The notes beneath the pieces are model-generated. The model did not search any database. It was not told the DNA's origin and worked only from the letters and a program-made list of their open reading frames with translations. Positions 3,917 to 42,860 of a DNA stretch of 64,000 nt are shown in pieces. Positions within the stretch are counted from its first letter, which is position 1. The number at the start of each line of letters is the position of its first letter. The stretch comes from an uncultured Streptococcus sp. (GTDB taxonomy: Bacteria; Bacillota; Bacilli; Lactobacillales; Streptococcaceae). The translations under genes and the position numbers were made by a program. The DNA lies in the NCBI GenBank assembly GCA_963525985.1, contig CAURMD010000001.1, positions 11,919 through 75,918 on the forward strand, written 5' to 3'.

Positions 3917-4192
3917 ATGAATAAAGGACTTACAACACAAGAGCAAATCGCACTAGCGAAAGAAATCTTACAAGTTAAGAACCGCAGAGAACGCTCACTT
4001 AAACTAGGGGAAATCCTAGATCGTGAAAAACTATCATCAGATGATATGTACGAATTGTATAACACACTATTAACAACAATCAGAGTTTACGGCGATGTTA
4101 TCGGATTTGATGATAAAGATTTTCAAGAAATGGCTCTTACAATCTTAGTGCTTGAAAAGGTTGAAGAAGCTAAACAAGCTAGGGTAGCGTAG
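3917..4192 (+). CDS. Phage hypothetical protein
   Basis: ORF with SD GAGG; first gene of lytic operon. Confidence 0.75.
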   Translation: MNKGLTTQEQIALAKEILQVKNRRERSLKLGEILDREKLSSDDMYELYNTLLTTIRVYGDVIGFDDKDFQEMALTILVLEKVEEAKQARVA

Positions 4193-10282: not shown

Positions 10283-11518
10283 ATGAAATTTTTGGATTTA
10301 TTCGCTGGCATCGGCGGTTTTCGTCTTGGTATGGAGTCCGCTGGGCATGAATGCGTTGGATTTTGTGAAATAGACAAATACGCTAGAGCCAGTTATAAAG
10401 CGATACATAACACAGAAGGAGAAATTGAATTACATGACATTACAAGAGTCACAGATGAGTCTATTCGAAGATTCGGAAGTGTGGACGTTATCTGTGGGGG
10501 CTTTCCGTGCCAGGCTTTCAGCATTGCGGGACACAGACGAGGTTTTGAAGATACACGAGGAACTTTGTTCTTTGAAATCTGTAGGTTCGCATCTATTCTC
10601 AGACCTAAATATCTATTCCTTGAGAACGTCAGAGGACTCCTCAACCATGACGGAGGGGCTACATTTGAAACCATCATCCGAACCTTGGACGAATTGGGGT
10701 ATGATGTGGAATGGCAAGTGCTTAATAGCAAGAATTTTGGAGTCCCCCAAAATCGGGAACGTGTGTTCATTATCGGACATCTTAGAGGAGAACGTACCAG
10801 AAACGTTTTTCCTATCAGCGGAGAAAGTGAACAATCTGATCATCAACCACCAAAAATAGAAATTATAGGCAATACTAGAAATCCGAATGGCACAAGTAAA
10901 GGAACTAAAAGCGTGGTCTATGGTTCAGGTGGTGTAGTGGGAACTTTAACCGCAACAGATTACAAAGAGCCTAAGCAGGTCGCTATAAAACAGTTCGGAA
11001 TCCTGCAACCCAATTTTAATCAATGTGGAGTGGTTTACGAAACAGACGGCATCGCACCAACAATCCGAGCCTATCAAGGTGGAGGTCTTGAACCTAAAAT
11101 CATTCAGCGTGGTCATGGGTATAATAAAGGCGGAGAATATGACATCGCTCCTACTTTAACTAGCAATGGCTATCACGAAAACAACATCCTAAGAATCAAG
11201 GAAGCGACTACTCAAGGATATTCAGAGGCAGAGGTTGGGTATAGTGTGAACTTATCACACCCAAACTCTAAAACAAGACGAGGACGAGTTGGGAAGCAAG
11301 TAGCCAATACCCTCTTAACTGGAGAAAGTCAAGGAGTAATTGAGCCTGATTTTAGAATTAGAAAGCTAACACCTCGTGAGTGTTGGAGATTGCAAGGATT
11401 TCCAGACTGGGCTTTTGACAAAGCGCAAGAGGTCAACTCGAACAGTCAATTATACAAGCAAGCAGGAAACAGTGTGACAGTCAATGTCATTGCTGCTATC
11501 GCAAAAGAATTGAAATAA
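10283..11518 (+). CDS. DNA (cytosine-5) methyltransferase
   Basis: Motifs I FAGIGG, IV GFPCQ, VI ENV, VIII Q.RER, IX R.LTPRE..RLQGF, X YKQAGNSV; ATG 10283 preferred over GTG 10211. Confidence 0.95.
   Translation: MKFLDLFAGIGGFRLGMESAGHECVGFCEIDKYARASYKAIHNTEGEIELHDITRVTDESIRRFGSVDVICGGFPCQAFSIAGHRRGFEDTRGTLFFEICRFASILRPKYLFLENVRGLLNHDGGATFETIIRTLDELGYDVEWQVLNSKNFGVPQNRERVFIIGHLRGERTRNVFPISGESEQSDHQPPKIEIIGNTRNPNGTSKGTKSVVYGSGGVVGTLTATDYKEPKQVAIKQFGILQPNFNQCGVVYETDGIAPTIRAYQGGGLEPKIIQRGHGYNKGGEYDIAPTLTSNGYHENNILRIKEATTQGYSEAEVGYSVNLSHPNSKTRRGRVGKQVANTLLTGESQGVIEPDFRIRKLTPRECWRLQGFPDWAFDKAQEVNSNSQLYKQAGNSVTVNVIAAIAKELK
10425..10859 (+). CDS. Candidate overprinted gene in +1 frame of the methylase
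   Basis: 144 open codons, AAGGAG upstream, QMSLF and SLSDILEENVP..FFLS motifs. Confidence 0.5.
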   Translation: MNYMTLQESQMSLFEDSEVWTLSVGAFRARLSALRDTDEVLKIHEELCSLKSVGSHLFSDLNIYSLRTSEDSSTMTEGLHLKPSSEPWTNWGMMWNGKCLIARILESPKIGNVCSLSDILEENVPETFFLSAEKVNNLIINHQK

Positions 11519-22013: not shown

Positions 22014-22110
22014 CGCCCTGAACATGGCGTTAAAAGGTTCAACTATTGGACAAGTCCGTAGTCCTAATAAAAGCGGAGCGACTGGTGATGGAGAACACCT
22101 AAAAAGCCTA
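22014..22110 (+). promoter_or_regulatory. Tandem pseudoknot leader upstream of scaffold gene
   Basis: CGCC/GGCG + TGAAC/GTTCA; GGAC/GTCC + TCCGT/GCGGA; GGTG/CACC; each followed by an A-rich linker. Confidence 0.55.
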
Positions 22111-40013: not shown

Positions 40014-40044
40014 GTTTGACAAAATTCAAAAAATGTGCAAAAAT

Positions 40045-40183
40045 AAGTAGAATTGAAAACAGGAAAAATCTACCTCCTTTCGATTCGCCCAGCCTTTTCT
40101 TGAGGCAATGAGGGGGCGGAGAGACGCGCTCGTCAACAGAAGTATCTCATTGGAAATGTTGCTCACTTTTTAGTGAGCTTTTT
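40045..40183 (+). ncRNA. Candidate RNA antitoxin with terminator
   Basis: Follows TTGACA at 40016; pseudoknot-forming stems; GCTCAC/GTGAGC-T5 terminator just before the toxin SD. Confidence 0.55.
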
Positions 40184-40198
40184 ATCTAAGGAATAGGA

Positions 40199-40714
40199 AT
40201 GAAAAGTAAGAAGTTAAAATTAGGTCAAATTGATTTAGAAATGTGCAAGGATTACGACCTTATTCAAGCGATGGACTATGACTTTAAGACGAAGGAAGTA
40301 ATGAATAAAGGAAGGGGATTTGCGGTAACTGTTGTCAAAATACAGGGGCTAACATTCTTGATTCCATTTAGAAGTTACATTCCTAAAAAGTATCAGTTGA
40401 AGTATAAGCTTAGAAATTCGGCAAAAGAAGGATATGTTGAAGGATTAGATATTGGTAAAACATTGATTTTAGAAGATGAAAGTTATTTACTGAATACGAC
40501 TTTCCGCCTTCGGAAAATCGAAGATTATTATAAAGTAATGGACAATGATAGAGCTATTATTAATAAGTTGGTAAAAGCTATTATAGACTATAATCACGCT
40601 TTGGAAATAGATGATAGAAACAAACTTGAAGATCCTAAACGTTTTAAATTCTCAACATTTCAGAATTATTCTACTAGATTAAAAGTAATTACAGAAAAAG
40701 ACTATTTAGAATAG
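40199..40714 (+). CDS. Type III toxin-like endoribonuclease (TenpN/ToxN/AbiQ-like)
   Basis: Motif order K.R, F.IP.RS.I, GLD..K.LI, ST.Q.Y recalled from TenpN-family toxins; low GC. Confidence 0.72.
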   Translation: MKSKKLKLGQIDLEMCKDYDLIQAMDYDFKTKEVMNKGRGFAVTVVKIQGLTFLIPFRSYIPKKYQLKYKLRNSAKEGYVEGLDIGKTLILEDESYLLNTTFRLRKIEDYYKVMDNDRAIINKLVKAIIDYNHALEIDDRNKLEDPKRFKFSTFQNYSTRLKVITEKDYLE

Positions 40715-40723
40715 CTGATGTTT

Positions 40724-40752
40724 CCGCAGGTCGTTTGGCTTGCGGTTTTTTT
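40724..40752 (+). terminator. Terminator resembling the one at 39986
   Basis: CCGCAGG...GGCTTGCGG plus T-run. Confidence 0.8.
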
Positions 40753-40883
40753 ATTTGTCTGAAATTGACTTGTTGATATCAACAAATAGCTTTATAAAGC
40801 GCTTGGTTGCCAATTTTGTTAACGTCAACAAAATCGCTCTGAAAGTACTTTCTAAAATAAAAAAAGATTAAATTTCTTTGTGT

Positions 40884-40917
40884 TTTTGTTGACATACGTC
40901 AACAAAAGGTGTATAAT
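40884..40917 (+). promoter_or_regulatory. Consensus promoter with palindromic operator over -35
   Basis: TTTTGTTGAC-ATAC-GTCAACAAAA; TTGACA(40889)-17-TATAAT(40912). Confidence 0.88.
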
Positions 40918-40951
40918 TAAGACATAAAGATAAGGAAAGAGGAAATCAAAA

Positions 40952-41347
40952 ATGAAAAAAGTAGCTTACGACAAATCAGGAGTCATGAAAGAAGCTTGGA
41001 ACTTGTTTAACAATGATGACATCACTCTTGCAGATTTTGAACATCTTGGATGGATGGAATGGAAAAGCGAAAAAACATTTGCTCTTTGCTTAAAAGAAGC
41101 TTGGGGCCGTGAAAAAGAAGTTGTTGAACGTGTTAACCAAAAATACGCTGAAGCTGAAACATCTGAAGAAGTGAAAGCTTGGGATTGGGCTTGCAAAAAA
41201 GTGGGTGTTGCATTCGAAATGGACGCTTACACAAAAATGACAAATGTTGAAAACATGGAAAAAGAAGCTTGGCCAGGAACTAGTGTATGGTCACTAGCTA
41301 TGCGTGCAGTAAAACTTCATATGGAACTTTTCGGGCAAAAAGCCTAA
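40952..41347 (+). CDS. acrIIA3: AcrIIA3-like anti-CRISPR protein
   Basis: Motifs recalled from AcrIIA3: K..(I/V)MK.AW..F, KTF..CLK.AW, SEE.KAW.WA..K, SVW..AM.AVKLH..LF. Confidence 0.8.
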   Translation: MKKVAYDKSGVMKEAWNLFNNDDITLADFEHLGWMEWKSEKTFALCLKEAWGREKEVVERVNQKYAEAETSEEVKAWDWACKKVGVAFEMDAYTKMTNVENMEKEAWPGTSVWSLAMRAVKLHMELFGQKA

Positions 41348-41362
41348 AATTTTTAACCCATC

Positions 41363-41393
41363 TGTTGACATAAGTCAACAATAATGCTATAAT
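41363..41393 (+). promoter_or_regulatory. Second consensus promoter with the same operator
   Basis: TGTTGAC-ATAA-GTCAACA; TTGACA(41365)-17-TATAAT(41388). Confidence 0.88.
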
Positions 41394-41425
41394 ATAATCA
41401 AGATGAAGAAAGAAGGAAAAACAAA

Positions 41426-41677
41426 ATGAACACATATAAAGAACAACTTCAAGAACTTCAACAATTTGCATTTGATATCATCAAAGAATATCCAATTGAC
41501 AAAGAAGCAGCGAACGTACTAGCTGAACTTGCTAATGCAAATAATCAAGATCGTATCAAATTTTTCGAGTTGAACAAGGACGAAGATACAAGAAAAGTAT
41601 TTCACGCTTTGGCATCAAGCGGTTCAGTTGCTCAATGGCTTGAAGATTATGCTTTAGTAGCATACATCAACGATTAA
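41426..41677 (+). CDS. Small acidic protein, candidate anti-defence/Acr
   Basis: 83 aa, D/E-rich, own promoter, between acrIIA3-like and HTH genes. Confidence 0.75.
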   Translation: MNTYKEQLQELQQFAFDIIKEYPIDKEAANVLAELANANNQDRIKFFELNKDEDTRKVFHALASSGSVAQWLEDYALVAYIND

Positions 41678-41688
41678 GAGGTAACTAG

Positions 41689-41874
41689 ATGAAAATCGAC
41701 ACGAAGAAGGTAGAGATGGTCTTGATGGACGAGACCATCCCTGCCAATCTCTTTGAAAAAGAGTTAGGCATTTCACGTTCAGCAGTCACTAGATTGCGAA
41801 AAGGAGAGCGCGAGTTTAAAAATTTCACAATCGATACTGCTGAAAAAATTCAAAGATGGATTGACAAGAAATGA
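41689..41874 (+). CDS. Small HTH protein, candidate Aca repressor
   Basis: KELGISRSAVTRLRKGER.F.N.TI.TA.K HTH. Confidence 0.8.
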   Translation: MKIDTKKVEMVLMDETIPANLFEKELGISRSAVTRLRKGEREFKNFTIDTAEKIQRWIDKK

Positions 41875-42479
41875 AGCTTGATTTGACAGGGAATAAATAC
41901 GGTCGTCTGACCGTCCTTGGCGACGACGGAACAAGAACAAAAAGTAGCAAGGTGTTGTGGCATTGTCTTTGTGAATGTAGCAATACAACCTATGTACGTG
42001 CTGACCATTTAAAAAATGGCTCAGTTGTCTCTTGTGGTTGTATGAGCGAAGAGAAAAAGCATGAACGCTTTAAGGATTTAACGAATACTGAAACGGATAA
42101 TTTTAAAGTAATTGATAGAGCACACTCAAAAAATCAACGTGTCTACTGGAATTGCATTTGCAAGCATTGCGGGAATCACATCGAGTTGCAAAGCAATCAG
42201 ATAGAGCGATATTCAAGCTGTGGTTGCAAGCAAAATCGCAGTACAAAAGAGCGAATGGCTGAGATATCTGATCCGAAATCACTAAGAACCAACAAGCCTA
42301 CTGCCAAAAGCACAACAGGCGTTCGAGGGGTATATTACAACAAGCGTAAAAATAGATACGTTGTATATATCAACGTTGATAAAAAAACAAAATATTTAGG
42401 TAGTAGCGTCTATCTGGAAGAAGCTACGAAAATGCGCCGTGAAGCAGAAATCGAATATGGATATAAACAGGAACCGTGA
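41871..42479 (+). CDS. AP2-domain DNA-binding protein with two Cys-rich repeats
   Basis: DLTG.KYGRLTV, W.C.C.C, SCGC x2; TGVRGVY...Y.V.I....K.KYLG....EEA...R..AE. Confidence 0.85.
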   Translation: MKLDLTGNKYGRLTVLGDDGTRTKSSKVLWHCLCECSNTTYVRADHLKNGSVVSCGCMSEEKKHERFKDLTNTETDNFKVIDRAHSKNQRVYWNCICKHCGNHIELQSNQIERYSSCGCKQNRSTKERMAEISDPKSLRTNKPTAKSTTGVRGVYYNKRKNRYVVYINVDKKTKYLGSSVYLEEATKMRREAEIEYGYKQEP

Positions 42480-42497
42480 CAATCATCACGGTTTTCT
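42472..42497 (+). terminator. Terminator of accessory operon
   Basis: AACCGTGA/TCACGGTT-TT. Confidence 0.7.
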
Positions 42498-42843
42498 ATT
42501 TTGCAAAAACACGCATTTTGAACGATTAGAAAGCAAAATCACAATCCTATTGTTCAAAAAAGCGTTTTCTTGAAGAATAGGAAGGGGAATCGTGGTGTAT
42601 TATTGTCAAAAACGCCATTTTGTTAACAATGCCTTCCCTTTCTTTTTTGATTATTGTCAAAAACGGTGTTTTGTTAAAATTAATATTTTTGATGAAGATT
42701 TTTTGAAATATAAATAGAAAATTGTGGTATAATGCAAGTAGATTTCAATACAGGGTTGAGCCGTGATTTTAGCCAATTTTGAAAAAGAGAGTTACAAAAG
42801 GAGTCACAAAAACTGCTATAATTTGATTTAATAGGTTTTTTAA

Positions 42844-42860
42844 GACTCCCACCGGCTCCA
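42844..42860 (+). other. attR core (displaced tmRNA 3' end)
   Basis: GACTCCCACCGGCTCCA matches the recalled streptococcal ssrA 3' half; repeat GAGTYACAAAA x2 at 42788-42811 may be arm sites. Confidence 0.8.

Follow-up and report, generated by a model that had tools for sequence, protein, structure and literature searches.

The locus described here lies at the right end of a temperate Streptococcus prophage, probably of the mitis group, and is very probably an acr-aca12 module for anti-defence that is repressed by its own Aca12 protein. Every component and the architecture are already in print, and the locus is an ordinary streptococcal acr-aca12 module. A paired change of recognition-helix residue and operator base may, however, offer a view of how Aca repressors diversify and of how prophages cross-repress anti-CRISPR promoters.

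Prophage context and anatomy of the locus

The window (the whole stretch of 64,000 nucleotides that was analysed) carries the module downstream of the lysin gene in a prophage of ~43 kb, which is integrated at the tmRNA gene. The 3' end of the tmRNA is duplicated, with the intact tmRNA at window position -567 and the copy at 42844, which delimits ~43.4 kb of prophage. Upstream of the module, a holin-like ORF is followed by a choline-binding amidase endolysin and then by a TenpIN-like type III toxin-antitoxin unit. This phage-borne unit (40016-40745, + strand), lying between the lysin and the acr module, consists of a promoter at 40016, ~140 nt of non-coding sequence that has no tandem repeats, a terminator at 40161-40178 and a 171-aa TenpIN-like toxin (phrog_8049; 80 bits, below the cut-off of 90); an Rfam search of the unit returned no antitoxin match. 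One public-run contig (depth 7.7), the single contig of this kind, joins 40745 straight to 42492, so that the whole module is absent, terminator to terminator, and the toxin-antitoxin unit is retained. The host is probably a mitis-group streptococcus, since a Streptococcus mitis record contains an identical 61-aa HTH protein and S. oralis one that is 97% identical.

Several further features were observed in the window. Between the module terminator and attR (42545-42680) lie a 28-nt direct repeat spaced by 51 nt and a 17-nt inverted repeat, possibly arm sequences of the att site. A GP20-b RNA motif at 22048-22110 (+ strand) scores above the Rfam gathering score, and the early region of the prophage encodes a 411-aa C5-cytosine methyltransferase-like ORF (10283-11518, + strand; motifs judged by eye). 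A 91-aa ORF (3917-4192, + strand; phrog_20440) is the first gene past the promoter that faces away from cI, before cro; its homologues, 86% identical, lead the Aca12-operator operons of L032-L035, and a similar gene leads L068. We regard this ORF as a candidate anti-defence gene outside the locus.

The first-pass annotation had described two perfect TTGACA-17-TATAAT promoters, each with the palindrome TGTTGAC-N4-GTCAACA over its -35 hexamer, that drive a 131-aa ORF and a unit made up of an 83-aa ORF, a 61-aa HTH and an AP2 gene. All of these elements are borne out (Table 1). The leaders are indeed alike, although the pattern written for them is only approximate in spacing, and the two promoter cassettes are 70% identical across 57 nt. 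Perfect promoters of this type number ten in the whole 1.24 Mb assembly, two of them in the locus. The palindrome has no third match in the 64-kb window at up to two mismatches (100 shuffles gave a mean of 0.31 matches and reached two matches once), and these two are its only exact copies in the host assembly (65.7% complete).

Table 1. Features of the module and its borders (window coordinates)
Feature	Position	Strand	Remarks
Intrinsic terminator	40724-40745	+	Fold z = -4.8; ends the upstream toxin-antitoxin-like unit; left module boundary
Two zero-spacer palindromes	40771-40830	n/a	TGTTGAT/ATCAACA at 40771, TGTTAAC/GTCAACA at 40817; 5' of P1
Operator 1 (predicted), TGTTGAC-N4-GTCAACA	40887-40904		Spans the -35 hexamer; geometry of the EMSA-validated Aca12 probe; putative binding site
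Promoter P1	40889-40917	+	12/12 consensus; presumed active
acrIIA3, 131 aa	40952-41347	+	NCBIfam NF033948; homology to Listeria A118 AcrIIA3
Operator 2 (predicted), TGTTGAC-N4-GTCAACA	41363-41380		
Promoter P2	41365-41393	+	12/12 consensus, plus TG extension
83-aa acidic protein, pI 4.5	41426-41677	+	phrog_16094 / gp83 / Song-2022 'orf8' family
aca12, HTH-only form, 61 aa	41689-41874	+	Arg30/Arg41 subtype
AP2-domain protein, 202 aa	41871-42479	+	Start overlaps aca12 stop; Song-2022 'orf2' family
Terminator hairpin	42470-42495	+	z = -4.2; right module boundary
attR core	42844-42860	+	Duplicated tmRNA 3' end

A terminator scan of the + strand listed none between the two bounding hairpins, so P1 probably reads all four genes and P2 the last three. 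Both leaders are unstructured (fold z 0.85 and 0.05), unlike many aca12 operons, for which a 5' UTR hairpin is predicted; the leader of L014, for example, has this hairpin (z -4.1). Control of the present locus is therefore probably transcriptional only. Within the locus, the Rfam search gave no match, and PADLOC returned 0/6. Reads from 4 of 24 RNA runs left the module uncovered.

HTH protein and operator types

The 61-aa HTH protein, proposed at the outset to be the Aca that acts on the palindrome, appears from homology to be an Aca, specifically of the Aca12 family. It aligns with the 140-aa reference-type Aca12 of L055 over 59 aa (41% identity, 68% similarity, E 6e-17), and the first 62 residues of the L055 protein match row 17 of Table S1 in PMC8934645 by eye. 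The family profile of the HTH matches Aca11 (9lx2; E 1e-7) and the AcrIIA15 HTH. With the single sequence as query, Aca11 is matched weakly (E 0.008). The gene lies downstream of acrIIA3 in one operon. The ~80-aa C-terminal extension of the 140-aa reference protein is absent, with a stop after residue 61 that overlaps the AP2 start, and HTH forms of 61-65 aa occur in both subtypes. Aca12 is reported to have been described as a domain of AcrIIA36, and the extension is not an established hallmark of Aca12. Given the stop at residue 61, the protein is not AcrIIA36-like in its full-length form, and the label of an Aca12-type HTH is still allowed.

Aca11, too, is a short protein: in the accessible parts of PMC12282945 and PMC12658196 it is described as standing alone at 63 aa and repressing two promoters as a dimer. 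According to the same sources, mutation of Aca11 Q28/R39 nearly abolished repression or strongly reduced binding, and it is with these residues that Arg30/Arg41 of the 61-aa HTH align. The Aca11-type operator core (AT-rich 11-2-11, between -35 and -10) has no match in the host assembly. The published Aca12 EMSA probe, TACTTGAC-GAAC-ATCAAGTA over the TTGAC of the -35 (PMC13551039, accessible part), shares its TTGA-N6-TCAA core and its geometry with the palindrome of the locus. The outer bases differ, being G..C here and C..G in the probe. We call operators with the outer bases found here G-type, and those of the published C..G form, including sites with a relaxed right arm, C-type.

For the pairing between HTH and operator, viral contigs were scanned for the locus operator plus a -10, and HTH genes were counted within 2.5 kb. 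An HTH of this type (54-100% identity) adjoins the palindrome at all 13 loci found by the pattern, and AP2 at 4 of the 13. The reverse scan with the published C-type form is less specific, with Aca12 at 2 of 9 loci. With 13 of 13 sites adjoining Aca12, the G-type operator is a specific marker for finding anti-defence cargo. A protein search gave 39 loci; 20 of these carry a G-type and 15 a C-type operator, 35 in all. When identical HTH domains are counted once, 28 remain, of which those with Arg30 go with 12 G-type sites, no C-type site and 2 cases of none, and those without Arg30 go with no G-type site, 13 C-type sites and 1 case of none. Each of the 16 Arg30 classes that have a site shows G..C as outer bases, each of the 10 Glu/Gln30 classes shows C..G, and in the Gly/Ser30 forms the right arm is relaxed (4/4 classes). 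AP2 is found alongside both operator types (7/20 G, 3/15 C), as are several cargo families, orf8 included, so the operator follows the HTH and not its neighbours. This swapping of cargo genes between operator types supports the suggestion, made from the sequence at first reading, that the locus is built from promoter-operator-RBS-gene cassettes.

The HTH stands without an operator at 4 of the 39 loci. L042 has an HTH copy with a diverged helix beside an AcrIIA6-like gene, and the HTHs of L043, L044 and L060 are stranded outside acr operons. The region at L042:1480 and L064:2439, both loci with an AcrIIA6-like 183-aa gene, share another promoter-spacer palindrome, of the TATC-TATATGATA type, which replaces the Aca12 operator; L064 has no Aca12. 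This palindrome suggests a separate regulator, perhaps AcrIIA6 itself. As a separate observation, a second small HTH gene (~59-63 aa, AcrIIA15/Aca-like, 23-27 bits) lies near attR in L009, L011 and L055, and in some relatives the opposite strand bears a -10/leader stretch like that of P2; neither was detected in the 64-kb window.

In a tree built with the helix left out (49 columns), the two HTH/operator groups part at the deepest branch (support 86/84), so that the covariation counts as roughly a single event in evolution. The Fisher p of 2e-7 makes too much of it, being neither a fair test nor independent evidence; the query alignment, moreover, included HTHs first found via the DNA pattern. 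A set of 400 further genomes of the genus yielded eight matches, three of which were earlier loci again. Three new non-Arg30 loci are C-type, one (L073) has no promoter, and L074 has a distant Arg-bearing HTH and lacks the palindrome. Phage MissE2, reached via orf8, is likewise non-Arg30 and C-type, which makes four further loci in all (L063, L068, L071 and L072), non-Arg30 throughout and C-type as predicted. No new Arg30 Aca12 locus occurs in this out-of-sample set (400 further genomes and phage MissE2).

We tentatively propose that Aca12 might comprise two or more orthogonal groups of repressor and operator, Arg30/Arg41 with G..C and Glu/Gln30 with C..G, similar to phage immunity groups, and that the operator might mark anti-defence cargo. 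With the module read in the same way, the difference between G..C and C..G could also, though less probably, be neutral lineage drift, all Aca12 proteins cross-repressing through the TTGAC-N4-GTCAA core and forming no separate specificity groups. For drift, the split is a single deep branch, the 14-bp core is common to both forms, and in several C-type sites mismatches in the right arm are tolerated. The Aca12 logo (Fig. 1C of PMC13551039) may already cover both forms. Against drift, both operator arms change together, the change falls at residues that contact DNA in Aca11, and the operator keeps to its HTH as cargo passes from one group to the other. The literature searched gave no description of two Aca12 specificity groups, although that logo or the AcrIIA36 paper may cover them.

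Cargo of the operon

AcrIIA3: the identification of the 131-aa protein as an AcrIIA3 homologue is upheld by NCBIfam NF033948 (175.4 bits against a cut-off of 70, profile positions 1-119 of 119) and by an alignment to the founder of the family from Listeria phage A118 (43% identity over 126 aa, E 1e-29). By virtue of its family, it would be expected to inhibit type II-A Cas9. The structural model is all-helical (pLDDT 93.1). A fold search gave no clear relative (best Z 6.3 over 55 residues), a sequence search gave no solved AcrIIA3 structure, and all ESM Atlas scores for this query were under 0.9. A relationship to AcrIIA2 finds no support in the profile comparison (E 0.37), and the non-match of folds does not exclude it. 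At its N-terminus, the two-helix 'AW...AW' motif of AcrIIA3 (residues 8-55, 40973-41116) resembles the N-termini of orf10-like (E 4e-6) and orf1-like (8e-4) cargo.

83-aa protein: the second ORF had been taken as unknown, which does not hold, as it is a homologue of the 'orf8' of Song 2022, tested negative as an Acr candidate (PMC8934645). It is 54% identical to the copy in phage 20617, which matches orf8 in Table S1 of that paper by eye. Homologues (46-61% identical) are present in 26 Streptococcus phage records, and Song-2022 orf8, Sfi11 gp83, TP-J34 orf83 and Cp-7 ORF28 (phrog_16094) are likewise 83 aa, with nothing substantive that differs. The model is a confident five-helix bundle (pLDDT 94.7). 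Its likeness to the REC-binding helical bundle of AcrIIA26 is a hint only: among 48,161 chains the C-terminal part of that protein ranks first (Z 4.7, rmsd 3.0, 68 aligned), level with unrelated chains, and the profile comparison with an AcrIIA26-like ORF (E 0.28) gives no support from sequence. Matches to Pfam PilO and to PDB haemolysin/chitinase fall below cut-off and were discarded, a BFVD search returned only the protein's own family, and the ESM Atlas gave no usable match. A profile search of the whole library returned 16 matches, namely 14 short family members or fragments and two long, unrelated-looking repeat proteins. From its position, acidity and conservation, we consider the protein at about even odds to be anti-defence cargo, directed at a non-Cas9 system or another Cas9 orthologue, as against a neutral passenger. 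In the pneumococcal phage Cp-7, an orf8-family homologue (L062:375-623) leads the leftward terminal operon, which has two annotated promoters and no Aca12 operator.

It is improbable that the real target of the module is something other than Cas9, the AcrIIA3 and orf8 families hitting another defence or a host process and Cas9 inhibition being secondary or lost. AcrIIA3 and orf1, which share the N-terminal motif just described, are both reported to be toxic in E. coli, and in the yeast screen of a preprint none of 27 AcrIIA3 homologues was active, their activity being context-dependent. Orf8 belongs to 17 candidates inactive against SpyCas9, St1Cas9 and St3Cas9, and orf2 was also negative against these three (PMC8934645). 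The leading position of the orf8 homologue in Cp-7 points the same way, as does the Cas9 search of the host assembly (65.7% complete), which found none. On the other side, that preprint also describes AcrIIA3 as an inhibitor of SpyCas9 in bacteria, and among the neighbouring cargo of sister loci are established type II-A Acr families (AcrIIA5-, 25-, 26-, 30- and 31-like, by eye from Table S1). Cas9 is, moreover, common in the genus: 14 of 36 same-genus genomes encode it at full length, and two more matches are weak.

AP2 protein: the 202-aa product has two Pfam CapR matches and a weak AP2 match, and was likened by eye to 'orf2' (Table S1 row 6, PMC8934645). It has no Pfam HNH match, and the PHROG 'HNH' matches mostly cover its ends only (2-66 or 140-200). 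The zero-spacer palindromes upstream of P1 are the only such sites in the host assembly; comparable sites occur, with both HTH subtypes, in 6 of 10 AP2-bearing loci versus 3 of 29 AP2-lacking ones, counts that ignore the kinship of the loci. Resembling operator half-sites, they are possibly the site of the AP2 protein. It is very improbable that AP2, or a cI/Cro-type phage regulator, binds the main palindrome, with the truncated HTH left over as a remnant: AP2 is a DNA-binding domain on the same transcript and the HTH is ~80 C-terminal residues shorter than reference Aca12, but 9 of the 13 operator loci have no AP2, AP2 is found with both operator types and with the unrelated Aca11 operator, the palindrome is nowhere else in the prophage, cI/cro region included, and the 61-aa HTH is identical in several independent contigs.

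Proposed working and known relatives

Our preferred reading remains a self-repressed acr-aca12 module, and its working can be outlined from relatives. Upon phage entry, when the repressor is not yet present, the two near-perfect housekeeping promoters would fire an early burst that yields AcrIIA3, the 83-aa cargo, the 61-aa HTH and the AP2 protein. AcrIIA3 would, as its family suggests, block type II-A Cas9. The HTH would then dimerise as Aca11 does and, by analogy with the Aca11 and Aca12 experiments, bind the 18-bp palindrome over each -35, shutting off both promoters and its own synthesis. The sequence pattern is that the HTH-only Aca12 of this locus, with Arg30/Arg41, goes with the G..C operator and validated Aca12 with C..G; a corresponding specificity in reading these sites is presumed.

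If Aca12 does comprise orthogonal groups, a superinfecting phage would have its anti-CRISPR burst silenced by the Aca12 of any resident prophage that belongs to its own group, and so be left exposed to Cas9; selection would favour operator switching, and cargo genes could be shuffled freely. The operator would then flag anti-defence genes that may act on non-Cas9 defences, among them the 83-aa orf8 proteins and the 91-aa family of position 3917. The 61-aa HTH might also serve as an orthogonal repressor.

Among known systems, the closest are the acr-aca12 operons of Song 2022 (PMC8934645), which likewise follow the lysin and have the order acrIIA3 - small ORF - aca12 - AP2 'orf2'; Fig. S1 of that paper draws an acrIIA3 - orf13 - aca12 - AP2 locus. 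L015 and L058 have this order; their orf13 matches Table S1 by eye and their HTH has the same sequence as the 61-aa protein, so the short HTH has probably already been labelled aca12 in print. The present locus differs in that the cargo of P2 is the orf8 homologue. The Aca12 operons of PMC13551039, in its accessible part, share the palindrome over the -35, the TTGA-N6-TCAA core and a prediction of multi-promoter control; control of two promoters by one Aca is published for Aca11/Aca13 and predicted for Aca12. Compared with reference Aca12, the protein described here is a stand-alone HTH of 61 rather than 140 aa, with Arg30/Arg41 in place of Glu30/Lys41, and its operator has G..C in place of C..G as outer bases.

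The acrIIA25.1-aca11 / acrIIA3-AP2 locus of Streptococcus sp. F0441 (PMC12282945, PMC12658196; PDB 9lx2), as far as its accessible description goes, also contains an AP2 gene and two near-identical promoters, one of them for acrIIA3, that a single ~60-aa HTH of the same fold family controls. The flank 5' of its acrIIA3 promoter is visibly similar, by eye, to 40843-40890. It differs in gene order, in the weak single-sequence match of its Aca11 noted above, and in its operator, an AT-rich 11-2-11 repeat between -35 and -10 that is unrelated to this palindrome. Finally, gp30 of Listeria phage A118 is the AcrIIA3 with which the 131-aa protein shares the family and the identity given above; in contrast to A118, acrIIA3 stands here without acrIIA1/acrIIA2 and under predicted control by Aca12.
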